Part shown: piece by piece, positions 43,159-60,800 of the stretch
Layout of the letters: every line of letters begins with the position of its first letter
How positions within the stretch are numbered: position 1 is the stretch's first letter
DNA from: Halobacteriovoraceae bacterium
GTDB taxonomy: Bacteria; Bdellovibrionota; Bacteriovoracia; Bacteriovoracales; Bacteriovoracaceae
NCBI GenBank assembly: GCA_963719505.1
Contig: CAVRCF010000001.1
Coordinates: 256,001 to 320,000, forward strand
Reading direction: 5' to 3'
DNA length: 64,000 bases
Notes under the pieces: model-generated
The model's database searches: none
The model's input: only the letters and a program-made list of their open reading frames with translations
What the model was told of the DNA's origin: nothing
Made by a program: the position numbers and the translations under genes

Positions 43159-43761
43159 TTATGACTTTACTTTCACCCAGTGTCTATTATCGACTTGAAT
43201 AATTCTTCCTTCTCCACCAAAATGTTCTGAAGTTTCTGGCTTTTTATAAATAGCCACAATTCTTTCGGGAAAGTCCCTCTTCTCTTCGAGAGTTATCTCT
43301 GTTAGATCACCGTTTTCGTTATTTGTCAGTGGCGTCCCTGAAGGATATTTTTTATCAACGTAAGCTAAAACCCAACCGGAAACGGCGATGGGAACTTCTC
43401 TTTCAAAACGCCCACTTCCTACGACCATGCCAAAGGTATCGGAGGCAATTCCTATCACACTGAGCTGGCAACGAGAAGAACAGATTTCAGCCCCCTCATA
43501 AGTATCCACATAACACTTACCTGGAATGAGTTCTCCTTTAAGTTGTTGGAAATCTGCATAGTCATTCCAAAGAGCATTCCAGACACCATCTTGAACATGG
43601 AGTTGGGCTGTCCCAGCTGCATTCCAGATACCGAGGTGGTTTCCCGTATCAGATGGGGACCAGTTTCCCGTTCCAGCGGTATAAGTCCCCTTCTCGATCG
43701 CTATCTCTGAGGCACCAGTACCAAAAGTTATCTTATTTAATTTATCAGATAAAATACCCAT
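43159..43761 (-). CDS. Phage tail-fibre/tailspike C-terminal chaperone-like protein (peptidase G2-like)
   Basis: WNDYADF...VIGIASDTFG...PIAVSG.V...W.KV pattern recognised from phage fibre C-termini; not searched. Confidence 0.55.
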   Translation of the reverse strand: MGILSDKLNKITFGTGASEIAIEKGTYTAGTGNWSPSDTGNHLGIWNAAGTAQLHVQDGVWNALWNDYADFQQLKGELIPGKCYVDTYEGAEICSSRCQLSVIGIASDTFGMVVGSGRFEREVPIAVSGWVLAYVDKKYPSGTPLTNNENGDLTEITLEEKRDFPERIVAIYKKPETSEHFGGEGRIIQVDNRHWVKVKS

Positions 43762-43763
43762 AT

Positions 43764-44990
43764 CTATTTCTCCGCCTTTTTCTCAAGTTCAAGAAGTCTT
43801 TTTTCAAGATCATCTTGTCTTTTATTAAGCTCTTTAATCTGAGTGGACTTTGATTGATTTTCTTTATCTACTTCTTTTAAAGCCTGAAGTAAGACCGCAG
43901 TCAACTGAGGGTACTTCACTACCAGGTAACCATCACTGGCAATACTTACCAGAGATGGAAACTGCTTTTTTATCTCTTGGGCAATAACACCAATATCATC
44001 TTGATCATTTGATCTCCATTTATAAGAGACACCTCGAAGCTTCTTAACCTTAGCAAGAACACCTTTTAAAGTGTGAACATCCCACTTCAAACGTCTGTCT
44101 GACTTAAGCTCCACAGTGTGTGTGTCCTCGATGACTAAGTCGCCATCAATTGTTGTTCCCCCAAATATATTTGTCACTCCATTAATGGTCGTCTGTCCAT
44201 TGACAGCAAAGGTGCCGTCTATTTGAACGGGACCATATAATTCAGCCCCCGTATTATTTGTTGGTGGAGGAAGAACAGGAGTTATAAAAGGCTTCGATAA
44301 GACAGCTCGCCCATTGGGAGCCAAGTCATAGCAGTCACCACCACCATCTCTTCCCGAAGGCAGGAAGGTTCCACCAATACTTTTACATACGTAATCTGCA
44401 ATTGTAGGAAGACTATTACCAGTTGCAGCTGTTGAACACTCAACAATAACGGGATCACCTGAGCCATCATCAATCGTTCTTACATTTAAAAGAATCTTTT
44501 TTGTAATTTCCTTAGCTCCAAAGACATCATCAGTTCTATCGAGGGTGACTTCGAAGTGTGTCCTACCTGTATCACCGGCATTAATATTGGCTGCTGGTGC
44601 CACAGAAGAATCAAGGGCAAAGCTTAAAATTTTCACTCTTGTACTGCCAATCATAGAGGTTGTACCAGCTGTAAAAACTGGTGTTCCATCAGCATTTAAG
44701 ATTTCTGTGATTACTCCCGCTGGAACATTATTTGGGTTGTGAACACCTGATGTTGGAATACTCGCGGGTAAAATTGGACCAAAAGTTTGTCGACAAGCTT
44801 CTTTGTCTCCAAGGACACTTCTAATATTATTGATGATCTCTATTGAATCAAATTTAACTTCTGTGGTTTTGGCACTTTTATTTTGAGTTTCTGACATCTT
44901 CATCATTGCAAGTTGGGCAATTGCCATAATTGCAAGGCTAATCATAACTTGAACAAGTGAAATCCCGGCCTGTGAGAGCTCTTTTTTCAT
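43764..44990 (-). CDS. Type IV pilin-like protein fused to a C-terminal peptidase S74 intramolecular chaperone (trimeric fibre/adhesin)
   Basis: AG|ISLVQVMISLAIMAI prepilin-like N-terminus; SDRRLK.DV...L.GV.YKW...IGVIAQE....P.LV...V.Y..L..VL..A.KE plus coiled coil. Confidence 0.8.
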   Translation of the reverse strand: MKKELSQAGISLVQVMISLAIMAIAQLAMMKMSETQNKSAKTTEVKFDSIEIINNIRSVLGDKEACRQTFGPILPASIPTSGVHNPNNVPAGVITEILNADGTPVFTAGTTSMIGSTRVKILSFALDSSVAPAANINAGDTGRTHFEVTLDRTDDVFGAKEITKKILLNVRTIDDGSGDPVIVECSTAATGNSLPTIADYVCKSIGGTFLPSGRDGGGDCYDLAPNGRAVLSKPFITPVLPPPTNNTGAELYGPVQIDGTFAVNGQTTINGVTNIFGGTTIDGDLVIEDTHTVELKSDRRLKWDVHTLKGVLAKVKKLRGVSYKWRSNDQDDIGVIAQEIKKQFPSLVSIASDGYLVVKYPQLTAVLLQALKEVDKENQSKSTQIKELNKRQDDLEKRLLELEKKAEK

Positions 44991-45029
44991 AGTTTTAAAC
45001 CTCAATTAATTTTATGGTACAATAATAAC

Positions 45030-45368: not shown

Positions 45369-46895
45369 TTAATTGAGATAGTTTTCTTCAATTAATTCTT
45401 TGAGACTCTTTAATTCTTCATACTGGTTTTCTAAAAGAGTAGAGAAAAATTGCTTTTCTTCTTGAGTATAGAAGTCTTGATCTTGGATAGTCTCTAAAAC
45501 CTTAGGTCGATCTATATCGTTTATAAACTCTAACGCACAAAGAAGAGTACCTCTCTCTTTCAAAAATATGAAGAGCTCCATAACGCTCTGGCATCGATTT
45601 CGAGTGTTACTTATCAAAACTCCACTTCCAAAGTTATTCTCAATAAGCACATCACAACACAGTTCAATCTTTCCCTCTTTATTCCTCTGTCCATTATCAA
45701 AGACTATTCTTATGGACTGTGCATCTCGAAATGAGTTCGCAATCAGATGATCAAAAAGAAGCATTTTTGTGAAAAACGTTGACTCATTCCTTTCAACATA
45801 AAGGTTTAATTCATCAAGAAGAATGTCCATGCTCTTTTCTTGTTTTTCAATTCTGTTTTCACTGAGATAGGCCAGAGGGTCCATCTTATAGATTCTGTCT
45901 ATCCCTCGAATATCATCCGTTAATAAAAATAAAGTCTCATTAAATTTAACCAATTCACTCTTTTGAGTTATAAGACCAAGTTGTGTGGCAATTAAACTTC
46001 CTAAATGTTGGCATTTTATATATTCAATCTTTTGAGTAAAGTCCCTAAAAGGTGTACCAATTTTTTTCAAATGATAGACTCTGTTTGAGGTAGACTCTAC
46101 GACTTGTATATAATCTGTTTCAGCATCAATAGTGTTCTTGAAAAGGGGGGGAATACGAACATAATCTTTCTCTTGTATTCTAATAACAGCTGGAAATTCA
46201 TCATGATAATTTCCAGTTATTGCTTTATGTTTTGGTAGGTTAAGTTTACAGTCCTGATAGTACTCAAGCCATAACTGCGCAAAACGAGGCTCTACCCGAT
46301 TCGTTAGACAAATTCCATTTGTGTAGTGAATACCTACAGGTGGCTCTAGTTGGTTTTGTTCGCCAACAAGATAATTCCAGTTTTTAGGAAGACATCCAAT
46401 ACTTTCAAGGCTTGGAAGCCAAACGAATTGGTGGAGATCTAAACCACTTGCTTCATTAATATATTTAGGGGTTAGACTTTTGCATTCTCCGCAGTTGAAA
46501 AGCATGAGGCTTGACCAATTTTTAAATTGATAATCTTCCTGTAAACAAGCATCTTTTTTCACTTTCTGAAGTGGGACATAGTCGTGCTTACAGACCATTA
46601 AGCTGAATTTTTCATCAGCGAAATCAAAGATTTTAGTTATATCTTGCGTGAAGATAAAGTCACAGTCGCAATAAAGACTCCAACCTTCATAATTTGACAG
46701 GTATGGGACCAAAAAGCGAGTTAATGAAAAATCCGAGGATTCATGCTTCGTCTTTGGTCTAGAATATTCAGGCAACTGTTTCTTCAAAATTGGTGTGATA
46801 GACAACGGTTCTTTTGAGTTTTGAAGAAGGCTCTGTATCAAAGCATGTAATGCTGGTGCTTCAGATTCATCATACCCTATAAAAATTTTTTTCAT
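45369..46895 (-). CDS. GT-A (GT8-like) glycosyltransferase fused to a degenerate HipA/PI3K-like kinase region
   Basis: KIFIGYD..E, S.DFS.TRFLVPYL.NYEGW..YCDCD (DxD), KNWSS.MLFN, WNYLVGE; C-terminal LFDHLIAN..R. Confidence 0.7.
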   Translation of the reverse strand: MKKIFIGYDESEAPALHALIQSLLQNSKEPLSITPILKKQLPEYSRPKTKHESSDFSLTRFLVPYLSNYEGWSLYCDCDFIFTQDITKIFDFADEKFSLMVCKHDYVPLQKVKKDACLQEDYQFKNWSSLMLFNCGECKSLTPKYINEASGLDLHQFVWLPSLESIGCLPKNWNYLVGEQNQLEPPVGIHYTNGICLTNRVEPRFAQLWLEYYQDCKLNLPKHKAITGNYHDEFPAVIRIQEKDYVRIPPLFKNTIDAETDYIQVVESTSNRVYHLKKIGTPFRDFTQKIEYIKCQHLGSLIATQLGLITQKSELVKFNETLFLLTDDIRGIDRIYKMDPLAYLSENRIEKQEKSMDILLDELNLYVERNESTFFTKMLLFDHLIANSFRDAQSIRIVFDNGQRNKEGKIELCCDVLIENNFGSGVLISNTRNRCQSVMELFIFLKERGTLLCALEFINDIDRPKVLETIQDQDFYTQEEKQFFSTLLENQYEELKSLKELIEENYLN

Positions 46896-46908
46896 CCTTC
46901 CCTCCATC

Positions 46909-47829
46909 TCAAAGCACTGTATTGTCTATAAGATTTCGATAGCCATTACATGAATAATCAACAGATTTTACCTCCCGGTAATGCTCTGTTAAGCAGTGAC
47001 CCAAGTAATCACAATTCGAACAAAATTGATTAGAACGCACACGATTTTTTTCTTTTTCACACCAAGTTTCATAGTCTTTAAATTTATCTAACTCTAAAAA
47101 GAATTCTTTATCTGAATTATCAAATTCTAAAACTGCGAATTTTCCTCTGGGTGTAATATAAATATGATTATCAGAAAAAGAATTATTAGCTTTTTGTTTA
47201 GCCTGACGAATTAAATCTAAATTTACAAACTGAAAGTTCTTTTTTACTGGGCACTCAATCCACTTTGTGACAAATTTTTCAAATTCTAAATCGCTTACAC
47301 TGAAAGCATTGGCTTGATTAGTAGAATAAGGTTTTATTTCAACTGAGCTGATATTTCCTATGGAGTTAAAGGTTCGAATCATTTGCTCAACATCCTTTTG
47401 TATGAGCTTCTCTGAGGCCAGCATAAGAATAGATACATTTTTGTCGAGACTCAAAATATTTGAAAGAACTTTTTCGGATTTCTCCCTTGCATCAAAGTCA
47501 AACGAAACCGAGAGGCTAACATGCTTGTTTAGAAAAAATGGATTTATGATTGAGAGATTTGTAATAATATTAACGGCAGGGTCTCCAAACTCCAATAAAA
47601 TGTTATCAATTTTCTGAAGATACTCATTTTTTAACAAGGCAATTTCACCGCCGTATAGATCAACTTGTTCTATCTCATAGCCTGCACTTACAATCTCATG
47701 AAACATTCCTGAGAGTAAATTTATATCAAGCTTTTCTTTATCTGCTAGCTCGCTTGTGGTCAAGTAACAGAACTCACAACGAAAATTACACAAATAAGTA
47801 GGATTAAGAGAGACAAAAATTTTCTTCAT
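46909..47829 (-). CDS. Radical SAM protein with truncated SPASM-like C-terminus (rSAM-1)
   Basis: CNFRCEFC, LYGGEI, C-terminal CSNCDYLGHCLTEH...C. Confidence 0.92.
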   Translation of the reverse strand: MKKIFVSLNPTYLCNFRCEFCYLTTSELADKEKLDINLLSGMFHEIVSAGYEIEQVDLYGGEIALLKNEYLQKIDNILLEFGDPAVNIITNLSIINPFFLNKHVSLSVSFDFDAREKSEKVLSNILSLDKNVSILMLASEKLIQKDVEQMIRTFNSIGNISSVEIKPYSTNQANAFSVSDLEFEKFVTKWIECPVKKNFQFVNLDLIRQAKQKANNSFSDNHIYITPRGKFAVLEFDNSDKEFFLELDKFKDYETWCEKEKNRVRSNQFCSNCDYLGHCLTEHYREVKSVDYSCNGYRNLIDNTVL

Positions 47830-48829
47830 TACTCTCTCTTTGTGCAAGTTTTAATATTTGTGGCTCTAAGGTTTTCATAAGTGAACAGTGCTGTTCGACC
47901 ATATTGTGATTTTTGTGATCACTGATTGTCTTTTTACATCCGTTACAGATATCAAACATTGGGCAGCTTAGGCACTCATTTTTCATACTAAAAATACTTG
48001 GTTCATTTTTAAGGGGCGTGACGAGGTCTCCGCTCATTTCATTTTCAAAGTCAATAGAATACTCTTTATCGTCCCCGAAGGCGCCACAACTATAGTAGTC
48101 CCCGTCCGGTTGCAGGCACCTAATACCAGAGTCACAACTTCTATTTCTTGGACAAACTGTTTTTTTATTTTTGACTGTTTTCATTAACTCTTTACTATTG
48201 AATTCCCAATTAAATAAATTTAAATCTATAATCTCAAGGTATGTTTTATATATTTTCGAAAGTTGATAAGGTTTAGACTCTCTTCCACTAGCCATTGAGT
48301 AATTTAATTTGCACTCAATATTTAAACTCTTAGCCAGTCTTACATTATTAATGGCAAGGTGTTCATCCTCATCCGTAACAACACTTATAAAGTCAGGGTA
48401 GTAGCCAAGATAAGATTTAAATTTTTTCATAACATCGAGAAAAATTTCTTCAGTATAGATTTTTTTCTTACTAATCCTCCTCCCATTTCCGTAGTTAAAG
48501 GATGTAGCAATATTCACTCTTGGGTGACGAAAGAGATCTATCCATTTTTCAGGTTTTTTATAAAAGTCCCACAAGTTACTGGTAAAACTTATAGACGTTC
48601 TCATTTCTTTTTTATCTAAAAAATTGATAATCTTCCAATAATAGTCAGGGGAAACCATAAGCGGCTCTCCTCCGTTAACTATAATGGTATTGGTTTGCGG
48701 AAACCGATCTAAAAACTGATTTATTCTGCTTAAATCAAGTAAAGTTTTTTTGTCCTCGGCCAGCGTCGGTGAGCTACAAAAGGTGCAGGCAAAATCACAA
48801 ATGTCGGTTGGCTTTATAATTAAATCCAT
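47804..48829 (-). CDS. Radical SAM/SPASM protein (rSAM-2)
   Basis: CDFACTFC, NGGEPL, C-terminal C..C...PDGD.YSC...CLSCPMFDICNGC...C. Confidence 0.93.
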   Translation of the reverse strand: MDLIIKPTDICDFACTFCSSPTLAEDKKTLLDLSRINQFLDRFPQTNTIIVNGGEPLMVSPDYYWKIINFLDKKEMRTSISFTSNLWDFYKKPEKWIDLFRHPRVNIATSFNYGNGRRISKKKIYTEEIFLDVMKKFKSYLGYYPDFISVVTDEDEHLAINNVRLAKSLNIECKLNYSMASGRESKPYQLSKIYKTYLEIIDLNLFNWEFNSKELMKTVKNKKTVCPRNRSCDSGIRCLQPDGDYYSCGAFGDDKEYSIDFENEMSGDLVTPLKNEPSIFSMKNECLSCPMFDICNGCKKTISDHKNHNMVEQHCSLMKTLEPQILKLAQRESNEENFCLS

Positions 48830-48833
48830 AGCA

Positions 48834-49451
48834 TTACTCTACTTTTATTTTAATATCAATTCCAATGGATATTCTATCAGTTCTTGACGCAAGTGGGTGA
48901 ACCCAGTGATTTAGATAGGATGGAAAGATTAATAGCATTCTCTCCTCTGGCTTTATATTTACTTTCTCCATATTCCCAAAAGGAAGAGACATCCCCATGC
49001 CGGGAACTGGATTAAGGAATTCTATGGTCCCACCTATCCCCTTTGTTTGTGGAATTTGGCAGAAATATGTACAAGTAAAAGTTGATTGGGGATGAACATG
49101 AGGCACAACATAGTCTCTATCTTTTTGTACAAGGGCCCATCCTGTCTTTTTTATCTCAGTATTATTTACCATCGAATCATCGATCACTGGGTCTTCATGA
49201 GCTGAGAATTCATCTTCCTTTGTCCAAAAAGAGTAGAGTACATTAAAGTGCTCATTAATGATTGCATTAAGTTTTTCTATACACTTTGGTGGTTTAACAA
49301 GAAGATCGTGTTTTGAGATCCAAGCTTTAGACTTATCCTTCGACTCAAGAGCCTCTTTCATCAAAAGGTACTCCTTAATCTCTTCGTTTAAATAAGCTGG
49401 CACAATCTCTTTTTCAATAAGAATAGCAGTCGGAAAAAAAGTTTTAATCAT
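48834..49451 (-). CDS. Putative 2OG-Fe(II) oxygenase (TIGR02466-like)
   Basis: W..V......PHVHP....TY......G.IEF..P...P....L.IFPS.L.H.V.....RISI. Confidence 0.82.
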   Translation of the reverse strand: MIKTFFPTAILIEKEIVPAYLNEEIKEYLLMKEALESKDKSKAWISKHDLLVKPPKCIEKLNAIINEHFNVLYSFWTKEDEFSAHEDPVIDDSMVNNTEIKKTGWALVQKDRDYVVPHVHPQSTFTCTYFCQIPQTKGIGGTIEFLNPVPGMGMSLPFGNMEKVNIKPEERMLLIFPSYLNHWVHPLASRTDRISIGIDIKIKVE

Positions 49452-49452
49452 C

Positions 49453-50478
49453 TCAAGTGACCTCGTTATAAAATTCTTTCAGAAAACAATCTACCGTATT
49501 CCTCTGCCTAGAGGCAAAGTCAGCTGCTACGAAGCAATACAATCCACATCGGTCTAGGTTTTCACAAGATAAGCAACCTTGTGAACTTAGGAACCGTTCA
49601 GCCATCTCACCAACTGTATCTTTATTTGGTAAACCAAGGAAACTCTTAGGGTTGTAATCTAGATACTGACAATTAGAGATAGAGTTGTCAGCAGCGATTA
49701 ATATCCTATTTTCTGAACAGCATTGAATATCATTCGTCTCGTTTTCTAAATATCCTTTTATAGGGTGAGATTCAGGATAATATTTTGCCAGATAAAGTAG
49801 GGCTTGCTTACAGTCTAAATCGCTTGGATGAAAAATATTACTATTTTTTAAGTCCGGAACATACCAATCAAAATTAACCGGAAAGTTTTCATAACAATAG
49901 TCAAAAAGGTGATCCCTTTTTTTGAGCATCGATTGAATCGATAATTTGTGAAGTGTTACAGATATTGAGGCTATATAGTCTGAAAAAATATCTAAGTTAT
50001 CTCGAAAAACAGCTTTTTGTCTTTCGTCCCAACTCCTACCTGCAAAGTCAAAAGATGTTTGCAAGGTTATATTAATTTTATGTTCTCGAAATCCATCGAG
50101 GAACGCAAGAACCCTATCTGTTTTTTCGAATATTAAATTCGATGTGAAACTAAATACAACTTTTTTATTTTCTAGTAATGAATTTATTTTAAAAACAAAT
50201 CTTTTATATTCATTGAACCAACTGTCACCATACTGGTCTTGAAAAAGCTCTCCCCCCATCAAGTTAACAGAAAAACTGTCCCAAGCGTTTCTCTTTTTTG
50301 CTATGAATCTTTCAACAAGTAGATATTTTTCATCAATCGTTACTCCTTCAACCCCTTTCATGCTGTGGTCTTGACAACAGAAAGAGCATGAAAGATTACA
50401 GTCTTCAAACAAGTGAATTTCTATCTCAATTGTACTTGAGTGTTTCTTTGATAGAATTTTATTTGTTACATATGACAT
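49453..50478 (-). CDS. Radical SAM/SPASM protein (rSAM-3)
   Basis: LFEDCNLSCSFCCQDH, NLMGGELF, C-terminal CLSCENLDRCGLYC...C. Confidence 0.92.
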   Translation of the reverse strand: MSYVTNKILSKKHSSTIEIEIHLFEDCNLSCSFCCQDHSMKGVEGVTIDEKYLLVERFIAKKRNAWDSFSVNLMGGELFQDQYGDSWFNEYKRFVFKINSLLENKKVVFSFTSNLIFEKTDRVLAFLDGFREHKINITLQTSFDFAGRSWDERQKAVFRDNLDIFSDYIASISVTLHKLSIQSMLKKRDHLFDYCYENFPVNFDWYVPDLKNSNIFHPSDLDCKQALLYLAKYYPESHPIKGYLENETNDIQCCSENRILIAADNSISNCQYLDYNPKSFLGLPNKDTVGEMAERFLSSQGCLSCENLDRCGLYCFVAADFASRQRNTVDCFLKEFYNEVT

Positions 50479-50479
50479 A

Positions 50480-50998
50480 TTATTTTTCCAACTCAGGTGC
50501 AAAGAAGTCAAAGCTCAATAATCTTCTCTCCTGACTTGTCGCAACAACTCGATGTTCAAAGTTTTTCGACTGATTTAAGAGAACTAACATTTCTGGCTTT
50601 GGATAAACCTCACAAAAAGTGTCAAGACTTCTCACTTGCAAAGATCCGCCGCTATCTTTGTCCATATCATCTAAATAGAAAAGGCATGTTAAGTTAAACT
50701 TTTTGCTTTTTAAGTAATCGTTATGCCAGTTGTGTGAGTTTTGATCAATGCCTTTCCAAAGGCCAAAAGAATGGGGCTTTATATCCTTGAAATGTAATTT
50801 TAAATAGTTATCAAGTAAATAATCTTGAACTTTTTCAAGGCCAGATCTTTCAAGAGCACTTATATTTTTCTGAGAAAAACTTTCGCGTGCATTTGTAAAG
50901 ACACAACTTTTTAAATCGATCAATTGTGAAATTGAACTATCTTGAGCACAGTAGAGTCCCTCTATAATAAATTGGTTAAAATTTTCTATAAAGTTCAT
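50480..50998 (-). CDS. 2OG-Fe(II) oxygenase (prolyl-hydroxylase-like)
   Basis: WHND...LFYL......GG.L......P......L....FEH.V.....R (HxD...H...R). Confidence 0.85.
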   Translation of the reverse strand: MNFIENFNQFIIEGLYCAQDSSISQLIDLKSCVFTNARESFSQKNISALERSGLEKVQDYLLDNYLKLHFKDIKPHSFGLWKGIDQNSHNWHNDYLKSKKFNLTCLFYLDDMDKDSGGSLQVRSLDTFCEVYPKPEMLVLLNQSKNFEHRVVATSQERRLLSFDFFAPELEK

Positions 50999-51020: not shown

Positions 51021-51048
51021 TTGTAAATGCTGTTATCTTGCCTATAAT
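51021..51048 (+). promoter_or_regulatory. Putative sigma70 promoter of the (CHxS)3-protein operon, within a divergent intergenic region
   Basis: TTGTAA-16 nt-TATAAT about 40 bp upstream of ORF 51089. Confidence 0.5.
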
Positions 51049-51088
51049 AATAGTATTAACCAGTTCTTAATGTAAATAAAAGTAAGGA

Positions 51089-51646
51089 ATGAACCATATG
51101 CCAGCTCCTACGAAAGCTTATATCATTAGTCGCTTCAACTCAGTGGTAGCTTCACTACCTTCACGTAACAACGCAACCTATCATGCAGGAAACTTTCCCA
51201 ATATCGCACAACGGACAAGACTTGGAGCTTTTCCACTTGGCTCGAGAACAGAGCCAAATAAAACTGTTGCTGATATAGGTGTTACTGGAATGATGGCGAC
51301 AAATATATTTGAAATACTACACAACCTTGCGATGGAACTAACACGCGTCAGAAAAGCGAGGAATGTGCACTTAGTTGACAACAGATCTGACAATGGGGCT
51401 GTTCATGCAGTTGTAGGCTCACCCACACTAACGGCTCTACATCCAAGGCATGCTCAGTACTTTGACTTTCCAGGAAGTCATAAAAACGTCGGAGACCAAA
51501 TAAATCTTTCAGAAATTGAATCTTTTCTAAGTAGTCTTAGAACACGAGTACAGTACATAAGAAGCAGTGATGATCATTTATTTGAAATCGTCTCTTGCCA
51601 CTCAAGTTGTCACTCTAGTTGCCACGGTTCAAGAGCGAGAAGGTAG
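51089..51646 (+). CDS. Putative precursor/substrate protein with C-terminal SCHSSCHSSCHGSRARR
   Basis: Three tandem Cys-His-x-Ser units at the extreme C-terminus; first gene of an operon within the radical SAM cluster. Confidence 0.75.
   Translation: MNHMPAPTKAYIISRFNSVVASLPSRNNATYHAGNFPNIAQRTRLGAFPLGSRTEPNKTVADIGVTGMMATNIFEILHNLAMELTRVRKARNVHLVDNRSDNGAVHAVVGSPTLTALHPRHAQYFDFPGSHKNVGDQINLSEIESFLSSLRTRVQYIRSSDDHLFEIVSCHSSCHSSCHGSRARR
51593..51631 (+). repeat. 12-bp coding repeat x3 encoding (C-H-x-S)3
   Basis: tct-tgccactcaagt-tgtcactctagt-tgccacggttca; differences mostly synonymous. Confidence 0.85.
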
Positions 51647-51649
51647 AAA

Positions 51650-52378
51650 ATGCAAATGACTCACACAACAGCACCTTTATCAATGGAGCTTGTAAAAGAA
51701 CAATTTGAAAACAAAGAAATGACTTTTGTTATCAACTACAAAGAAAGTGAGCTTCAAGGAAAAAACCTTCTTGTCTATATTTCAAATCTTGAGCTCAATT
51801 GTGAAATTGATTTTCATTCGTGCTCTTTTGACAAAAGAGAAGAACTTATAAAAGAGTTTCTAAATGTTAATTGTATCAATAATATTAATTCACTTCGCCT
51901 CAATGCGGCTCATATTATTTTAGAGTTTATGGGTGTTGATTTCTCTGAAGAGATTCTCAACCCAGCTTTCTCAAAAAGTGAGATTCAAATTTTTATAAAA
52001 AATAATAAAGAAACTCTAGAAAAATGGAAAACATTTCTCCAATCAACTATGGTTTATAACCTTACATCTGTTAGTGCCGTTAATGAGGAATACAAGTTCG
52101 ATCAGATTTTCGAGACAGTTGATGACCCTTTTTATATCGGAAGAAATGTCGTCACACTCCTCTCTATTCCGACTTTTATGGAAAGGGTATACTCGATACC
52201 AGTGGAACAGGAGCTTTTTTATTTCAAGCAACAGTTTGAGGAGTGTATGTTTAAAGGCGAAAGTCTCTTTTATTATTTTTGTAACGAAGCAAACACTCCC
52301 TTTCTCATCTACAATATGCTCTTGACGGGTGATATGAGCATAGAAGAGCTTGAAGCAATTAAAACCCTAAAAGGCTAA
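51650..52378 (+). CDS. Hypothetical protein (cluster accessory)
   Basis: 242 aa; starts 3 bp after the precursor stop. Confidence 0.7.
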   Translation: MQMTHTTAPLSMELVKEQFENKEMTFVINYKESELQGKNLLVYISNLELNCEIDFHSCSFDKREELIKEFLNVNCINNINSLRLNAAHIILEFMGVDFSEEILNPAFSKSEIQIFIKNNKETLEKWKTFLQSTMVYNLTSVSAVNEEYKFDQIFETVDDPFYIGRNVVTLLSIPTFMERVYSIPVEQELFYFKQQFEECMFKGESLFYYFCNEANTPFLIYNMLLTGDMSIEELEAIKTLKG

Positions 52379-52379
52379 A

Positions 52380-53474
52380 ATGTTCAATCTTTTTAACGGT
52401 ATCTATCTAGATCTGGCAGATCGGTTTACATCTAAATACGACTACCTAACTGTTTCGACGACCAAAACCTTTCACCCCGCTGCAAAATACATAGAACAAG
52501 ACTTTGGTGAATCTCCCGCTTTTGATGACTATCTTGAAGAGAATTTTGATGCAGATGAAGATCGCTTTTGGCAATCACTTATAAACAAAGAAAAAAAGAA
52601 AAGCTTTGTCATCTATACTGACAGTGAGCTCTACCACCGGCTTCAACTTACCTTTTTTAAGAATATCTTTCCAAAAAGTGAAATAGATCAACTGCATAGA
52701 CTCTACAATTTCTATGTTTACAACGAACATATTCGCTCTAAGTTACAAGAAAAAAGAGGGGGAGAAAACCTAAGAGTCGATACGAAACACCTTCCTCACT
52801 ATACAGAAGAGGAATTTGAGCAGAAGTTGAAACAGCTTCCGAAACATAAATCTCTCTACTCCATGGATAAAGCATCACTTTGTTTTGAATTTTTGTTCTT
52901 ACAATATGTCATAGAAAGAGACTGCGTTTATTCTGCATATTTTTTAAAAAGAGTAAAAGACTTGTCTTGGAAAAATTGGTTCGAAGAAATTGGAGAGATC
53001 AGAACAGAAATCATTAACGGATTCTATCAACTCGACAAGATTTTAGATGATTCAAAGTTTAGTCTCGATGAAAACCTAGACTCTTTTCTTGCTAAAAATA
53101 ATCTAGAATGGATCTCTGACCTGAATCTTTACGGAGTTAACCCCGATTACTTCAAAAGAACATACAAGCCCGATGACTTTCTTAAGATTATCAATGCAAA
53201 AGATAAAATTGAATTTTCTTCAGATCAAGACTTCTCGGATCGCCTCACTAATAACTTCAAGACGAAAATGGAATACCTTTTCAGCGAGCGCTATGAAGAT
53301 CTTCTTTTGCTAGATGTGAAAGATTCTATTGGATGCTCCTTTACCAAAGGACAAATGCAAGCCAAAGTTAACACCTTACTTTTAAGTTACTTGTATTCAG
53401 TGGTCGATGGAAGGAATAGTTTTTTTGGTGAGACTCTCACTCTATCTGAAACAAAGTTGAGTCAAGATGAGTAA
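52380..53474 (+). CDS. Hypothetical protein (cluster accessory)
   Basis: 364 aa; tightly coupled on both sides. Confidence 0.7.
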   Translation: MFNLFNGIYLDLADRFTSKYDYLTVSTTKTFHPAAKYIEQDFGESPAFDDYLEENFDADEDRFWQSLINKEKKKSFVIYTDSELYHRLQLTFFKNIFPKSEIDQLHRLYNFYVYNEHIRSKLQEKRGGENLRVDTKHLPHYTEEEFEQKLKQLPKHKSLYSMDKASLCFEFLFLQYVIERDCVYSAYFLKRVKDLSWKNWFEEIGEIRTEIINGFYQLDKILDDSKFSLDENLDSFLAKNNLEWISDLNLYGVNPDYFKRTYKPDDFLKIINAKDKIEFSSDQDFSDRLTNNFKTKMEYLFSERYEDLLLLDVKDSIGCSFTKGQMQAKVNTLLLSYLYSVVDGRNSFFGETLTLSETKLSQDE

Positions 53475-54471
53475 TCCTGTTATCCTACAAAAAAAATCTG
53501 GAGATGGTGAGCTATTCGTCAATCTTTTTGAATGGTGCAACTTGAATTGCGATTTTTGTTGGCAGGATCATAATGACTGGAGTGGAATTGAAACCATTGT
53601 AGAAAGAAGCGTTGATATATTAAGCGCTATACGCAGTAGCAAAGAACCTCATTTTATTGTTAACCTTATGGGCGGCGAGCTTTTTGCCGATAAAATCCCA
53701 GATCAAACAATTTATGATTATTACAATATGGTTGAGGCTGTCTTCACGCAGTTGCCACCGAAAAAAACTATTGAAGTAAACTGGGTCACGAACCTTGTCT
53801 TCACAAAACTAGAAAGACTACAAGAGCTAGTCAATAAAACTCGAGCACTTGGCATTCAAAGCCGTATAACCACCAGCTTTGATTTTACTGGTAGATTTAG
53901 AAAAGCTTCGCGTCTTCTTTTTGAAAATAATATTAGAAAACTTGGATCAGAGGTGGGGACTATTTCCGTTGTCCTTACAAAACCTAATATAGAGAAGATG
54001 ATAAAAAACGATGATTCTTTATTCAAGGAACTTTACGCCCAAGGATTCTATTTTTATTTTGATTACTACTCACCAGAGAATAATTTCAAAGAGATGCTTC
54101 CCACCGATACACAACTTCAAGAGGGCTTATTATTTCTTCTTAGAAACTATCCAAATGTGAATCCCATTCAATCTTGGATTAAAAATGAATCAAACCCCAT
54201 GAGTTGTCAGTCCTCTATCGTCATAGACAAAGATGGTGTTAAAGGCAAATGTAAATCACTCGTTCCAGAAAGCATTAAAGTTGTATTAAAAAGTGAAAGT
54301 CACGACAATACCAATGCTGTTATGGAAGATCGTTTTAGTAACAAATACGACTGCATTAGTTGTGAATTCTACAAACGCTGTGGCATGGGATGTTTTTTGC
54401 AGCATGACTTCGATGGTTTTGAAACTCTTAGTGAATGTCTTTATAAAGAAATTTTTAGGAATATAACTTAA
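53467..54471 (+). CDS. Radical SAM/SPASM protein (rSAM-4), paralogue of rSAM-3
   Basis: LFEWCNLNCDFCWQDH, NLMGGELF, C-terminal CISCEFYKRCGMGC...C. Confidence 0.92.
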   Translation: MSNPVILQKKSGDGELFVNLFEWCNLNCDFCWQDHNDWSGIETIVERSVDILSAIRSSKEPHFIVNLMGGELFADKIPDQTIYDYYNMVEAVFTQLPPKKTIEVNWVTNLVFTKLERLQELVNKTRALGIQSRITTSFDFTGRFRKASRLLFENNIRKLGSEVGTISVVLTKPNIEKMIKNDDSLFKELYAQGFYFYFDYYSPENNFKEMLPTDTQLQEGLLFLLRNYPNVNPIQSWIKNESNPMSCQSSIVIDKDGVKGKCKSLVPESIKVVLKSESHDNTNAVMEDRFSNKYDCISCEFYKRCGMGCFLQHDFDGFETLSECLYKEIFRNIT

Positions 54472-55073
54472 TGTTTAATAAAGAGGCCGTCGAAATTCAA
54501 TATAACTCAAATGGCACCGTCGAAGAATCCTTTCGAACTCGTTCAAAAGTTGGAGAAGAGCTCTTAACACAGGCTCTAGCTCGCTGCTGTCAATTCGCGA
54601 TAGATAAAAAAGAAATAGAACTTATCTCCTATGCACCAAATGATGATTTGTCCGTCAAAGACCAAGCAATAGCACTCGTTTTTAACTCCGCAATTAGACA
54701 GAGTTCCCACCTAAGTGACTACCACGTCATAAAAGTAATGAATAATAATGAGAGTGTCTTAAAATGCTATGACAATGATTTTTGGAGACACCCAAACATA
54801 CCTCTACCAGTAAACGCCAGGCTTGCCCAACAGTTCGGCATTGGATTTTATCCTGATAACGAGGAGATTGACATCTATGACATGTACTTTTTTCATCACT
54901 CCCTTGAGGCGGTAGAAGATCACTTTAACCTTAATCTTAACCTACCAGATTTTGTTAAGGCTTATGGCTTCGGCCTCTATGGTGTTAGTTACAACTCAAA
55001 TTTAGAGGCTTTAAAATTGAAGAGATATTTTTACCCAAGTGACCCGCAGCTCAATAATCCTCAAGACCTATAG
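54471..55073 (+). CDS. Hypothetical protein (cluster accessory)
   Basis: 200 aa; TAATG stop-start overlap with rSAM-4. Confidence 0.7.
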   Translation: MFNKEAVEIQYNSNGTVEESFRTRSKVGEELLTQALARCCQFAIDKKEIELISYAPNDDLSVKDQAIALVFNSAIRQSSHLSDYHVIKVMNNNESVLKCYDNDFWRHPNIPLPVNARLAQQFGIGFYPDNEEIDIYDMYFFHHSLEAVEDHFNLNLNLPDFVKAYGFGLYGVSYNSNLEALKLKRYFYPSDPQLNNPQDL

Positions 55074-55729: not shown

Positions 55730-56806
55730 ATGCGCTTAGCCAAAGATATACAAATTTATTTAAAAACAACTGAGACCTGTAATCTTAACTGTAGTCATTG
55801 TTTCACAAGTGGAAGCAAAGGAAAAAAGATTTTCTTTAACCCCATAAAAACAGCGTCCTTTATTAAAAGTTTAAATAAGTCTGAGAATCTAAATTCGATG
55901 AGGATACTCTTTCATGGGGGAGAGCCTCTTTTAGCTCCAATAAAAGATCTTTATAATTTCTACGAAGAACTTCAAGACATCAAAAATATATCATTTGGTA
56001 TTCAAACAAACTTAGTATACAAGCTTAATCCCAAGAGGTTAAATTTTTTTAAAGATGTTTTAAAGCTAGAGGGGATTGGAACTTCATGGGATCCCAATAT
56101 TCGTTTTGGTTCAAATGGGTTAACAACAAAGGAACATGACCTTCACCTTTGGGAAACAAATATTAAAACTCTGGTAGATCTGGGTGCAGAAATAACCCTA
56201 ATGGTATCTCTATCAAGAGACGTAGTTGAATATTATGAGCCCAAGCAAATAATTGATTATGCTATTGAGCTTGGAATAAAGTATATACTTTTTGAAAGAA
56301 TAACGTTCGATGGGAATTCACAGGATAATGAAAATGTTCTTCCTTCCAACAAGAATTTAGACTTATGGATGCTTACTATGTACAAGCAAACACTAGAAGA
56401 TGATCGATTCTTAAAAATTGGAAATATGTTCCTAGACGAAATTGCTAGAAGCTATCTTCACGGAAACCACGTAGCGAATAGATGTAGAGGGTGTGAGCAA
56501 AAACTTATCACCATCAACGCCGATGGCACCCTCTCTGGTTGCCCCAACTCTGCCCCAACAAGTATTTGGGGTAGAATAGAAAAAGACCCAACCACCTTTA
56601 TTGCTTCACCTAAACGCACAGAGGCAATATGCAAAGAACAAATACGAAATTCCGTTTGCCTTACTTGTGAAGTAAATGACTTATGCAATGGCGACTGTTA
56701 CAAATTAAAATGGGATAAAGATATTTGTTCAGCTCCAAAAAGCTTATTTCAATTTCTCAAGACAACCGAAGGCTCTAAAAATTGCTCTAAGGTTCTCCTA
56801 ATATGA
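55730..56806 (+). CDS. Radical SAM/SPASM protein (rSAM-5)
   Basis: CNLNCSHC, FHGGEPLL, QTN, C..C...INADG..SGC...CLTCEVNDLCNGDC...C. Confidence 0.93.
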   Translation: MRLAKDIQIYLKTTETCNLNCSHCFTSGSKGKKIFFNPIKTASFIKSLNKSENLNSMRILFHGGEPLLAPIKDLYNFYEELQDIKNISFGIQTNLVYKLNPKRLNFFKDVLKLEGIGTSWDPNIRFGSNGLTTKEHDLHLWETNIKTLVDLGAEITLMVSLSRDVVEYYEPKQIIDYAIELGIKYILFERITFDGNSQDNENVLPSNKNLDLWMLTMYKQTLEDDRFLKIGNMFLDEIARSYLHGNHVANRCRGCEQKLITINADGTLSGCPNSAPTSIWGRIEKDPTTFIASPKRTEAICKEQIRNSVCLTCEVNDLCNGDCYKLKWDKDICSAPKSLFQFLKTTEGSKNCSKVLLI

Positions 56807-57255
56807 AAGAGTGGAAGTTAAGACAACAAATTTTTTCTCGTATTTTTTCAGATAAAAACCTAGGGGATAATCTCGACGAACAAGTTATCATTGAAGAGTT
56901 TGACCAGGAATCTATTCTTAAAAGAGCTTTAGAATATCCTTTTTCGAACAATGCGATTTGCCACTATCCAGGCAAGTCTTTTGCTATTGCTATTATCTTT
57001 TCTCTTTTGCTAGAAAAGCACTTCGGCGATTCTAGATTTAGCTATCTCTCAGACCCTAACCTTTTTATGGGAGAGGACCCTTACTTCATACCCTATACTG
57101 ATAGTAGGGATCTTTACGATAAGATCCTGGAAAGTTTTCCGGTAGAGTCGATAGATAGACCTGAGTCTTATGGACAAGACTTCCAAAAGACAGTGAATTA
57201 TTTTATGATGGAGTACTTGTTTCATGATGACACAAAAATGTTCGCCCCTTCTTAG
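56803..57255 (+). CDS. Hypothetical protein (cluster accessory)
   Basis: 150 aa; start overlaps the rSAM-5 stop region. Confidence 0.7.
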   Translation: MKEWKLRQQIFSRIFSDKNLGDNLDEQVIIEEFDQESILKRALEYPFSNNAICHYPGKSFAIAIIFSLLLEKHFGDSRFSYLSDPNLFMGEDPYFIPYTDSRDLYDKILESFPVESIDRPESYGQDFQKTVNYFMMEYLFHDDTKMFAPS

Positions 57256-57784
57256 TCCTAACCTCATTGATCAAATATTTTCTGATTCATGGCTCTATTC
57301 TGTTAATAGTTTTTTTATAATTGAGCCTCAGACAGGTTCTTATGATGAAAGGTTATTGAATGATAAAACTATGGTAGAGCAGGCTCAGCTGATCAAAGCA
57401 CAGTTTCTCTTAGGCTCAACGATAATAGTTAAAAACATCGAATCTTTTACTACCGAATTGAAGCGAAAATGTGAAGTCCTCGGCAAGGGGTCTATGGTTG
57501 ATGCACATATGTATTTGAATAAATTTAAAGAGTCTCTGTCTTTTGATTTCCACACTGACGAGACCGACGTTATCATCCACTTGGCTTATGGATTCAAAAA
57601 AATTGAAATTATCAAAGATGACATTGTTTCAACCCATACTCTTGCAGCTGGGGATGAATTATTCATTCCTAAAGGCTTAAAACACCGAGCGATTAATCTA
57701 GCACCATCTTGCTCTTTTAGTTTCGGTATCAAGGAAGATTCATTTTTTATTCCGGGAGGAATCACAAAGGATGACTTTTTTTAG
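57224..57784 (+). CDS. JmjC/cupin-4-like Fe(II)/2OG hydroxylase
   Basis: AHMY......F.FHTD..DVII....G.K......L..GD.LFIPKG..H.A. Confidence 0.78.
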   Translation: MMTQKCSPLLSPNLIDQIFSDSWLYSVNSFFIIEPQTGSYDERLLNDKTMVEQAQLIKAQFLLGSTIIVKNIESFTTELKRKCEVLGKGSMVDAHMYLNKFKESLSFDFHTDETDVIIHLAYGFKKIEIIKDDIVSTHTLAAGDELFIPKGLKHRAINLAPSCSFSFGIKEDSFFIPGGITKDDFF

Positions 57785-59645: not shown

Positions 59646-60800
59646 TTATTTATCCTTTTTAAATATTTTTGAAAGTAAACTCTTCTTCTTAGTATCTGAT
59701 GGGTTGAAATAACTGTCTACCTTGGAAGCAATTTCCTGATAGGCATTCCAAACTGTTTTACCTTCGAACTTATTTTGAGACATATAAGGAGTACCAAAGT
59801 CAGCTCCTTTTCTAAGTGCTAACTCTATTGGAATTTTTCCTAAATAACCAACACCCAACTCACTTGAAGCCGCCAAAACACCATTTGTTCCATAGATAAA
59901 ATGTTCTTTATCGCAGTTATCACAAATAAAAGAACTCATGTTCTCAACCATTCCCATGACATGGAGACCTAGTTTATCAAACATATGAAGTGCTTTTCTT
60001 GCATCCAAAAGGGCTATATCCTGAGGCGTTGATACAATAATAGCAGTATCAACTTCTAAGTTTTGCATCATTGAAAGTTGAACATCACCTGTACCAGGAG
60101 GAAGATCTAACAGAAGGTAGTCAAGTTCTCCCCAGTGAGTTTCAAAGAAAAATTGATTAAGGACTCCCCCAAGCATAGGCCCACGCCAAACGACAGGCTC
60201 ATCCTCATGGATAAAATTTCCAAAACTAATAAACTTAACCCCATAGTTCTCTAGAGGAATTATCTTTTTATCTTCAGTAGCCTCAGGCTTCTCTTTTCGT
60301 TTATCAAATAGCATAGGAATTGACGGTCCATAGATGTCAGCATCAATAACTCCAACTTTATGTCCAGCATTTGCAAGTGTCACAGCAAGGTTAGAGGTAA
60401 AAGAAGACTTACCAACTCCACCTTTTCCAGAGCCTATAGCAATGATATTTTTAACACCAGAGATAGGCTTTTTATCCATAACTTGTCCGTGGCCAACTTT
60501 TATTTGAGCTGGATTTTTTGCTTCCGGAACTGGTTTAGAGCCAATAGATCCATAGACCTCAGCACTTGCTTTGGACTCAGAGAGAATATAAAGATTGTCT
60601 TCATTTACGACACCCTTTAAGGCCTCTGTCATGTAGTCTTCCAGATGTTTTTTATCTGCCGGTGAAATCCCCTCTCTATTATATTTAATGTGGACGTCAT
60701 CACCTTTTTTATCAATATCTATGATTCTGTTTGATGAGCCTAGAGTCGTACCATCTTCATCAATTTTTATTGCTGATAGAATCTCTTTAATTTCGTTCAT
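59646..60800 (-). CDS. mrp: Mrp/NBP35 (ApbC) Fe-S cluster carrier ATPase
   Basis: SGKGGVGKS, DADIYGPS, WRGPML, DLPPGTGD, ENMS.F.C..C. Confidence 0.95.
   Translation of the reverse strand: MNEIKEILSAIKIDEDGTTLGSSNRIIDIDKKGDDVHIKYNREGISPADKKHLEDYMTEALKGVVNEDNLYILSESKASAEVYGSIGSKPVPEAKNPAQIKVGHGQVMDKKPISGVKNIIAIGSGKGGVGKSSFTSNLAVTLANAGHKVGVIDADIYGPSIPMLFDKRKEKPEATEDKKIIPLENYGVKFISFGNFIHEDEPVVWRGPMLGGVLNQFFFETHWGELDYLLLDLPPGTGDVQLSMMQNLEVDTAIIVSTPQDIALLDARKALHMFDKLGLHVMGMVENMSSFICDNCDKEHFIYGTNGVLAASSELGVGYLGKIPIELALRKGADFGTPYMSQNKFEGKTVWNAYQEIASKVDSYFNPSDTKKKSLLSKIFKKDK

Follow-up and report, generated by a model that had tools for sequence, protein, structure and literature searches.

The tail gene and its product

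The stretch of DNA analyzed here (the window: 64,000 nucleotides, positions 256,001–320,000 of contig CAVRCF010000001.1, assembly GCA_963719505.1, Halobacteriovoraceae bacterium) contains a gene, here called the tail gene, whose product ends in a short, repetitive C-terminal tail. The gene opens a run of genes on the + strand, and a second run diverges on the − strand; the cassette formed by the two runs includes five radical S-adenosylmethionine (rSAM) paralogues, 2-oxoglutarate (2OG)-Fe(II) oxygenases and a JmjC-type cupin. We describe the tail protein, its relatives in bacteria and phages, and the grounds for regarding it as a candidate substrate of these enzymes. The two features at the center of the argument are:

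51089–51646, + strand, candidate tail-bearing substrate protein: open reading frame (ORF) of 185 residues with an N-terminal domain and a C-terminal (C-H-x-S)3-R-A-R-R tail
51596–51643, + strand, core tail CHSSCHSSCHGSRARR: residues 170–185, modeled with low confidence, directly after the last predicted strand (residues 165–170)

The last residues of the protein are SCHSSCHSSCHGSRARR, and the translation closes with ...EIVSCHSSCHSSCHGSRARR before the stop codon. Cysteine occurs only at residues 170, 174 and 178 (codons from 51596), and a His-x-Ser unit comes after each (HSS, HSS and HGS), with a period of four residues. The translation thus bears out the Cx3Cx3C spacing and the His-x-Ser units reported in an initial annotation made from the DNA letters. 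The corresponding 12-nucleotide repeats are TGCCACTCAAGT, TGTCACTCTAGT and TGCCACGGTTCA. Units 1 and 2 differ at two positions, both synonymous third positions, while unit 3 carries a single replacement (Ser to Gly) and takes its Ser codon from the other codon family. Since the differences are mainly synonymous, the repeat appears to be preserved at the peptide level rather than being a fresh product of slippage, in agreement with the selection on the peptide that the annotation had proposed. The pattern CH..CH..CH occurs once among the 7,388,264 six-frame residues of the 3.69-Mb genome to which the window belongs, in the tail ORF, and the shorter CH..CH occurs once in frames of at least 80 residues, again within the tail ORF. 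The CHxx-repeat motif is thus far beyond chance, and the tail gene is single-copy in this genome.

An AAGGA sequence (51084–51088) abuts the first ATG (51089) and lies 9 nucleotides ahead of an ATG at 51098. The true start is probably 51098, giving a protein of 182 residues, because of this spacing, because the database gene call is the 182-residue form (P0001) and because Met4 of the 185-residue form is nearly invariant in the family alignment. A candidate promoter, TTGTAA-16-TATAAT, is found at 51021–51048, in a region with 4 such sites against 2.9 ± 1.6 expected. Among public sequencing runs, one DNA dataset contained a small share of the words of the locus, and no RNA dataset was listed. 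The N-terminus, read by eye without running a predictor, has no hydrophobic segment and no visible export signal. The tail protein has no match among NCBIfam families at an E-value of 0.01 or below and no Pfam domain; in PHROGs, phrog_35144 (function unknown) matches it at residues 159–185 only.

A word-indexed search returned 20 relatives, and an exhaustive phmmer search returned 103 cluster representatives at E-values of 0.001 or below, 35 of them at 1e-10 or below. In an alignment of 20 sequences, identity to the query falls to 24% in the N-terminal domain, while C170, H171, C174, H175, C178, H179, G180, R182, R184 and R185 are invariant. For the tail counts, the results of both searches were pooled into 118 proteins. 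The exact C-terminus (CHx[S/N/A])3RxRR is present in 106 of these (318 units), an RR end in 113, and cysteines are confined to the last 17 residues in 85. The initial annotation had named a tail that varies among homologues as the outcome that would speak against it; instead the tail is, judged from the alignments, the most conserved part of the family. Within the units Ser is not strict, as the fourth position is S in 259, N in 39 and A in 20 of the 318 units, and never Gly. The third position varies freely, and Gly is common there (67 of 228 positions in 76 distinct tails). The only substitution of a tail His is Tyr, found in P0114 and in an ORF of a second genome, G141, discussed below.

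Length variants of the tail include four units (P0055 and P0096), two units with a Pro-rich spacer in place of the middle one (P0031, P0036, P0077 and P0087), and tails without the basic end (P0111 and P0112). Nine family members are long (396–541 residues) and keep the N-terminal part, the C-terminal part and the tail, with large inserts between. Pfam Gly_rich_2 was found in 4 of the 7 long members scanned. In P0119, P0122, P0124 and P0088, the Gly_rich_2 insert separates the conserved N-terminal part from the C-terminal part and tail. In sequence, the long forms resemble a leader peptide less than they do a modular, displayed protein. The tail gene is duplicated in tandem in two genomes of the window's phylum (G083:C5:88442-89567 and G090:C5:201897-203118).

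The cassette in bacteria and phages

The other genes of the cassette are, on the + strand side of the tail gene:

51650–52378, + strand, phrog_20767 protein of an unknown family (E-value 7e-58), beginning 3 nucleotides past the tail gene stop
52380–53474, + strand, phrog_36207 protein of an unknown family, a variable cassette member
53467–54471, + strand, rSAM D, radical SAM/SPASM paralogue with a CNLNCDFC motif and a Cys-rich C-terminus (phrog_1802, E-value 7e-43)
54471–55073, + strand, 200-residue protein of no family, with homologues in some bacterial and two phage loci
55068–55769, − strand, 233-residue protein without a family match, with a WHSDND (HxD) motif like that of the neighboring 2OG oxygenase
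55730–56806, + strand, rSAM E, radical SAM/SPASM paralogue, the enzyme most tightly linked to the tail gene and directly upstream of it in phages
56803–57255, + strand, 150-residue protein of unknown function (phrog_20737)
57224–57784, + strand, JmjC-type cupin (Pfam JmjC_2, E-value 8e-8)

and, on the divergent side:

50480–50998, − strand, 2OG-Fe(II) oxygenase (PF13640), first gene of the divergent operon
49453–50511, − strand, rSAM C, radical SAM/SPASM paralogue
48834–49451, − strand, 2OG-Fe(II) oxygenase (PF13759; phrog_81)
47804–48829, − strand, rSAM B, radical SAM/SPASM paralogue, present with rSAM E in minimal phage cassettes
46909–47847, − strand, rSAM A, radical SAM paralogue
45369–46907, − strand, 512-residue protein with a weak GT8-like N-terminus (Pfam E-value 0.005, below the cut-off; phrog_28018), kept in bacterial loci
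43764–45005, − strand, tail-fibre-like protein with a Peptidase_S74 intramolecular chaperone domain (residues 302–353) and a pilin-like hydrophobic N-terminus
43159–43761, − strand, 200-residue protein adjoining the S74 fibre, with no family in Pfam, NCBIfam or PHROGs

All five rSAM paralogues contain a CX3CX2C motif and a Cys-rich C-terminus, and all match phrog_1802. Invariant within the rSAM E family are the three cluster cysteines (C17, C21 and C24) and eight further ones at the C-terminus. The SPASM model TIGR04085 scores 29.9 bits for rSAM E, which passes the cut-off of 27, 26.4 for rSAM B and 20.8 for rSAM D. rSAM E aligns end to end with the models for anSME, PapB, DarE, YhhB and DynA (E-values of 1e-13 to 1e-19), with scores of 71 bits for anSME (against a cut-off of 349.45, TIGR03942), 57 for PapB, 53.5 for DarE, 51 for YhhB and 50 for DynA, all far below the cut-offs. 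It also matches the anSME structures (PDB 4k36–4k39) at an E-value of 2e-5. These similarities suggest that the cassette enzymes are of a kind that modifies peptides or proteins, in support of the tail protein as their substrate. The phrog_20767 and phrog_36207 proteins were considered as degenerate radical SAM half-barrels; the idea was dropped, as hhalign against the rSAM E family gave no relation. No peptidase, transporter or exporter family was found in the cassette ORFs scanned, except for the self-cleaving S74 domain of the fibre. The 233-residue ORF, which overlaps the start of rSAM E by 40 nucleotides on the opposite strand, is possibly a further Fe(II)/2OG-type enzyme, judging from its motif.

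The strongest link between the tail gene and these enzymes comes from viral genomes. A scan of IMG/VR identified 59 loci, all with a tail-bearing ORF. rSAM E is present in 58 of them, directly upstream of the tail gene, and the exception begins at a contig end. The phrog_20767 protein is present in 53, the six misses having at most 183 nucleotides downstream; its gene follows the tail gene in every locus that has downstream sequence. The usual viral order is cupin, rSAM E, tail protein, phrog_20767, (phrog_36207), rSAM D ... rSAM B, (2OG oxygenase), rSAM A and phrog_20737. As the paralogues cross-hit, counts per paralogue in these loci are upper bounds, and the gene order was taken from best matches. 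The concern that homologues might lie far from radical SAM genes, raised by the initial annotation against itself, is thus answered by 58 of the 59 viral loci and by all bacterial loci of sufficient length.

The cassette is also present in cultured phages. A tblastn search with the tail protein of the window against 50,697 phage records gave no match at an E-value of 0.01 or below, yet the family is present there, since the phrog_20767 protein as query retrieved 14 cultured-phage records: the Ralstonia RSL2/RSF1/FLC4 group, Burkholderia FLC6/FLC8/SURPRISE13, Agrobacterium Atu_ph07 and Sinorhizobium Phosso. In the three cultured jumbo phages inspected, a tail protein lies between rSAM E and phrog_20767:

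RSL2, ORF068, 186 residues, tail end ...CHSSCHTSCHGSRGRR
Atu_ph07, AUZ94952, 296 residues, tail end ...CHSSCHASCHNSRSRR
Phosso, XYS97446, 306 residues, tail end ...CHTSCHASCHSSRSRR

All three are annotated as "hypothetical protein", and the other cassette genes are hypothetical or generically named.

In all five viral loci with scanned flanks (L003, L006, L024, L028 and L036), the cassette follows a giant phrog_358 protein and also lies behind a gene whose C-terminus matches the tail-fibre families phrog_22593/phrog_19602; L036 has baseplate-wedge and S74 tail-fibre genes on both sides of the cassette. In Atu_ph07 and Phosso, it lies behind a gene of ~13 kb annotated as a virion structural protein, and it is also found in T4-like environmental phages. 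The phage-type cassette is embedded in tail-fibre modules, a setting that escaped the initial annotation.

Among bacteria, a scan of one genome per species identified nine loci: seven in metagenome-assembled genomes titled Bdellovibrionota, one in a genome titled Flavobacteriaceae and one titled "bacterium". Title and placement disagree for the Flavobacteriaceae-titled genome (L062), which is placed in the window's own family, beside a Bacteriovoracaceae-titled one. Within the phylum of the window, the tail protein is present in 15 of 401 sampled genomes (~4%), the window's own included, and in 12 of the 336 of high quality. The phrog_20767 protein is present in 17 of the 401, the same 15 plus G141 and G327, in both of which a variant tail ORF occupies the equivalent position. 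Also common to the bacterial loci are the S74 fibre, the 200-residue protein next to it and the GT8-like protein. The window copy is flanked by acyl-CoA dehydrogenase, electron transfer flavoprotein and serine dehydratase genes on one side, and by a Mrp/NUBPL ATPase and an SLT transglycosylase on the other. A prophage origin was rejected; since housekeeping genes lie on both sides, an integrase is absent and no tRNA lies close by, the copy is better described as an island.

Several observations concern the genes at the edges of the cassette. The N-terminus of the S74 fibre (43764–45005) has basic residues followed by AGISLVQVMISLAIMAI..., a pilin-like segment, which suggests that the fibre is anchored or exported like a type IV (pseudo)pilin. 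Seven viral loci and other Bdellovibrionota loci have a homologue of the fibre together with the cassette. The protein at 43159–43761 is 58–66% identical in four other bacterial loci, always beside the S74 fibre, and is much better conserved than the remaining cassette. About 2 kb from the cassette, whose enzymes call for many Fe-S clusters, lies the Mrp/NUBPL-type P-loop Fe-S cluster carrier (59646–60800, − strand), which may be merely a housekeeping gene.

Natural variants and predicted structures

Viral loci with and without the basic end differ in their enzymes. Twenty-one of the 59, forming one related group, have tails that end in ...EEFYCHSNCHGSCHGS[I/L] (CHGS[I/L]) and lack RxRR. rSAM E is present in all 21, while neither the cupin nor rSAM D/C is found in any. 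In the 6 of these with ~10 kb downstream, rSAM B is always present and A and D are always absent. In contrast, the cupin is present in 35 of the 38 viral loci with RxRR, the three misses having at most 1.2 kb upstream. Therefore, rSAM E and B appear to go with the CHxS units, and the cupin, rSAM A, rSAM D and phrog_20737 with the basic end, in what is essentially a single lineage contrast.

The two bacterial genomes with variant tail ORFs are informative in different ways. In G327, the ORF ahead of phrog_20767 (P0129) is a full-length homologue of the tail protein (hhalign 98.4%, 172 columns), and its tail, CHSS-HSS-HSS-HSS-RGRR, has one Cys and four HxS units. Two relatives at 26–28% identity end in CHSS-HRS-HSS-HSS-RGRR, and a fourth one-Cys member was found in L087 (the set is P0129, P0131, P0132 and L087). 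The 9.5-kb contig of G327 retains rSAM E, A, B and D, the cupin and phrog_20737. Searches for further variant-tail loci gave none in viral sequences (scans with P0031, P0087 and P0131 and a DNA pattern scan) and none in metagenomes with P0131; a metagenome pattern scan gave two loci, one already known. In G141, a 103-residue ORF (L084 10294–10605, − strand) lies between rSAM E and phrog_20767 and has only the tail (FICHSNCYTPPPKSRSRR) in common with the family. Position and tail are thus conserved even where the scaffold differs. As the HxS unit outlives the loss of two cysteines, His and Ser are favored over Cys as the conserved target, which strengthens the His-x-Ser reading of the initial annotation and weakens a purely metal-binding role.

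The AlphaFold2 model of the tail protein, built from 106 sequences, is confident, with a mean predicted local distance difference test score (pLDDT) of 88.5 and a predicted template modeling score (pTM) of 0.84, as expected from the folded N-terminal domain anticipated earlier; the last two 10-residue blocks have pLDDT values of 57 and 56. Foldseek against the PDB gave no match at an E-value of 0.001 or below, and the best Z score from VIA-align against 48,161 chains was 3.8. When the family alignment was used as a profile to search PDB sequences, the matches were at chance level only (E-values of at least 0.12), and the ESM Atlas gave no usable match. Matches in BFVD were uncharacterized phage members of the family, the Atu_ph07 protein among them. 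The phrog_20767 protein is modeled with a pLDDT of 94.5, has no PDB match (best Z score 4.2, over 55 residues) and only sub-threshold leads in the ESM Atlas (DUF3800, score 0.83); its fold may be the operon's second one with no solved relative, although the absence of a structural match does not prove a new fold for either protein. Prediction of an rSAM E–tail protein complex gave ipSAE values of 0.01 and 0.00 against a mark of 0.32, in a run without controls that speaks neither for nor against the pairing.

A tail with three cysteines and three histidines invites comparison with a metal site (Zn, Fe or Fe-S), in which case the protein would serve the fibre apparatus as a structural metalloprotein, or assist the rSAM enzymes as a dedicated redox or cluster partner, and would not be their substrate. 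Cys at i, i+4 and i+8 and His at i+1, i+5 and i+9 are classic ligands, the 85 of 118 members without other cysteines fit such a role, and the cassette is rich in Fe-S and Fe(II) enzymes. However, the one-Cys lineage is stable and keeps both its HxS units and the enzymes, a Pro-rich spacer replaces the middle unit in the four proteins listed above, and the rule of S, N or A but never Gly at the fourth position has no obvious meaning for a metal site. Neither is the tail modeled as an ordered site, with the proviso that AlphaFold2 does not model metals. We therefore regard this explanation as unlikely, although it survives better than the other alternatives considered below.

Proposed function and relation to known systems

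We favor, as a fairly probable though by no means settled reading, that the tail protein is a dedicated protein substrate of a phage-type radical SAM maturation cassette, whose product stays protein-bound and acts with a tail-fibre-type adhesion apparatus. From the observed conservation of the tail, its genomic linkage, the confidence of the fold and the phage context, we infer that the tail is the substrate, which of its residues react and what its biological role may be. The tail bears the marks of a maturase substrate because it is an invariant, flexible terminal segment, its linkage to SPASM enzymes is universal, and its variants track the enzyme repertoire.

In the proposed scheme, a folded scaffold of ~165 residues would carry the short flexible tail of His-x-Ser-type units, each following a Cys in the window protein, with a closing R-x-R-R. 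rSAM E and B, found in every cassette type, together with A and C/D in the larger cassettes, would remove hydrogen atoms from residues of the tail and introduce cross-links or oxidations. The likeliest products would be links from His to a C-beta, of the three-residue cyclophane type, and/or links derived from Cys. The aromatic-x-(S/N/A) rule, the His to Tyr changes and the lineage with HxS units only fit three-residue cyclophane chemistry, by analogy, and the near-invariant Cys points to an added Cys chemistry (formation of a thioether or of formylglycine) or to metal binding at a later stage. Hydroxylations would then probably be added by the Fe(II)/2OG oxygenases and the JmjC cupin, again by analogy; Pfam JmjC_2 is of the ribosomal-oxygenase type, which acts on Arg and His. 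The product would remain on the folded protein rather than being released, and would work with the fibre-type adhesion apparatus both in phages and in this Bacteriovoracaceae-like bacterium.

A product that stays a protein is suggested by the folded scaffold, the inserts, the lack of a protease or exporter family in the ORFs scanned and the tail-fibre context. The earlier suggestion of a modified protein rather than a released peptide is therefore reasonable. The converse would be a giant precursor of a peptide that is synthesized ribosomally and modified post-translationally (RiPP) or of a cofactor, with the N-terminal domain as leader and the tail modified and then cut off as a small molecule. 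Pyrroloquinoline quinone and mycofactocin offer a precedent, with invariant C-terminal cores processed by SPASM enzymes, and the tail is likewise an invariant core at the extreme C-terminus, accompanied by several SPASM enzymes and oxygenases. The "leader", however, is a confident globular fold in a protein of 182–185 residues and accepts large inserts, the cassette ORFs scanned contain neither peptidase nor exporter, and a tail-fibre module is an ill-fitting location; we consider a released product improbable. The classical RiPP hallmarks of a short leader-core peptide and a protease or exporter are absent from the tail protein and, apart from the self-cleaving S74 domain of the fibre, from the cassette ORFs scanned, whereas the co-localization expected of an rSAM substrate is seen in 58 of 59 viral loci, in all three cultured phages and in the bacterial loci.

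Several points weigh against the favored substrate reading. The reaction type cannot be read from homology, because every named radical SAM family scores far under its curated cut-off. A His/Ser-centered view does not, on present alignments, explain why Cys is near-invariant across most of the family. A neighboring tail-fibre or giant structural protein could be the real substrate of some or all of the enzymes. The contrasts between tail types and enzyme sets come from one or two lineages, and two bacterial loci with RGRR tails (L066 and L068) have no cupin within 10 kb. The annotation-based lists of structural proteins in the accessible text of the papers on phages FLC6 (PMC8066314) and S13 (PMC11898562) omit the cassette genes. 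More generally, the proposal draws on sequence, context and models.

Among characterized systems, the HXS defense system is the closest in outline. HxsA is described as a 214-residue effector with five HxS repeats; HxsB/HxsC carry out its maturation, which includes a +8 Da change on SHRSS, and it protects against the entry of phage DNA (PMC13128918). As proposed here, it pairs a folded protein with tandem His-x-Ser units with more than one radical SAM enzyme; HxsA has basic repeats, and the basic character of the tail protein lies in RxRR. In contrast to HxsA, which has a peptidoglycan-binding domain and N-terminal processing/export according to the same report (PMC13128918), the tail protein has no such domain, and its units, usually with Cys between them, are found at the extreme C-terminus. 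The cassette lacks HxsD, contains two to five SPASM enzymes with 2OG/JmjC oxygenases, and is phage-borne in tail-fibre modules. The HxsC model scores 37.5 bits with rSAM B and 15.3 bits with rSAM A, against a cut-off of 267.9; HxsB and HxsD have no match among the 17 cassette proteins scanned, and HxsA has none to the tail protein. The system is thus HXS-like in outline, yet by every sequence-family test it lies outside the HxsABCD system, whose His-Xaa-Ser repeats the initial annotation had brought up. Very improbable, for similar reasons, is a counterpart of HxsA that would bind nucleic acid through its HxS units and basic RxRR end and block DNA entry (used by phages and predators for superinfection exclusion or as a decoy against HXS defense), as HxsA, itself matured by two rSAM enzymes, is reported to bind DNA through its basic HxS repeats (PMC13128918), but the cassette shows no HxsA, HxsB or HxsD match, no PADLOC defense match beyond a weak viperin-like rSAM similarity, no peptidoglycan-binding domain and no visible export signal, and the neighbors of the gene are virion tail genes, not early or moron genes.

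The triceptide maturases (XyeB, GrrM/OscB, FxsB, YhhB and AmcB) offer a second comparison. These SPASM enzymes act on repeated motifs that are defined as aromatic-x-x. In the tail protein, His (in rare cases Tyr) takes the aromatic place, and a residue with a C-beta (S, N or A) is always found at the third position. rSAM E matches the YhhB, AmcB and FxsB models with E-values of 8e-14 to 2e-11, scoring 44–51 bits against cut-offs of 370–445. The tail protein differs from triceptide precursors in being a folded substrate of ~180 residues with a Cys before each unit.

The best-scoring named family for rSAM E is anSME, aligned over residues 13–330 of 358. It lacks a distinct leader-recognition domain and modifies Cys/Ser within a whole protein. 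The last unit of the tail, C-H-G-S-R, also has the C-x-x-x-R spacing of the sulfatase motif, C/S-x-P/A-x-R. However, the score is a fifth of the cut-off, Pfam finds no sulfatase domain, the third motif position is G/S/N/A rather than Pro/Ala, and the minimal phage tails lack Arg. The CXXX-repeat system shares the period of four between cysteines, and rSAM C matches its maturase family TIGR04115 at an E-value of 0.0015, with 18 bits against a cut-off of 350. SPASM enzymes are also known to form Cys thioethers in peptides and, in the case of QhpD, in a small protein subunit. rSAM E matches QhpD at an E-value of 4e-11 and PapB with its 57 bits against a cut-off of 340. Unlike ranthipeptide or QhpD substrates, the tail has no acidic acceptor residues, and one sub-lineage has lost two of its three cysteines.

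Cassette genes have been noted in phage genomes before. Where their text could be consulted, the genome papers on FLC6 (PMC8066314) and S13 (PMC11898562) merely list cupin, Fe-S oxidoreductase, radical SAM and 2OG genes as accessory. A radical SAM cluster is also listed for RP12/RP31 (PMC5468394), for which our search gave no link to the tail family, and T4-like environmental genomes are reported with up to 12 radical SAM genes (Nishimura et al., PMC5332604). The literature searched holds no description of the tail motif or of the cassette function; supplementary virion-proteome tables outside this search may hold relevant data.

A bolder extension, which we offer as a tentative and rather doubtful idea, is that the tail protein arose in large phages as a virion- or tail-fibre-associated protein whose (Cys)-His-x-Ser/RxRR tail is converted by up to five rSAM enzymes and the oxygenases into a covalently cross-linked warhead. 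Such a warhead would be used at host recognition or envelope penetration, and the module, with its S74 fibre, would have been captured by predatory Bacteriovoracaceae for prey attack. S74-type phage-like fibres are described as prey-recognition adhesins of Bdellovibrio (PMC10769870). If this is true, the warhead could be metal-binding, reactive or polyanion-binding, and the tail protein would be the first structural component of virus particles to be matured by radical SAM enzymes, while its HxS scaffold would carry post-translational chemistry of a new class.

Returning to the favored substrate reading, the best interpretation of the sequence data is a widespread system for protein maturation, undescribed so far, that is carried by phages, has a defined candidate substrate, lies in host-recognition modules and is shared with predatory bacteria. 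It would work in an HxsA- or triceptide-like manner, without reaching any curated threshold for either. Radical SAM maturation is mainly associated with small bacterial peptides, whereas the target here would be an almost invariant stretch of 16 residues on a fold without a detected solved relative. HxsA, a matured HxS-repeat protein, was characterized only in 2026, as an anti-phage defense, according to PMC13128918. The present system would place a related HxS logic on the phage side, with far more enzymes (two to five SPASM paralogues together with 2OG/JmjC oxygenases). Its presence in tractable cultured phages would give chemists working on RiPPs and radical SAM enzymes a defined substrate-enzyme set to reconstitute. 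It would also offer phage biologists an account of why radical SAM and 2OG genes, puzzlingly, cluster beside phage tail fibres, and would connect phage tail modules with the phage-like fibres of predatory bacteria.

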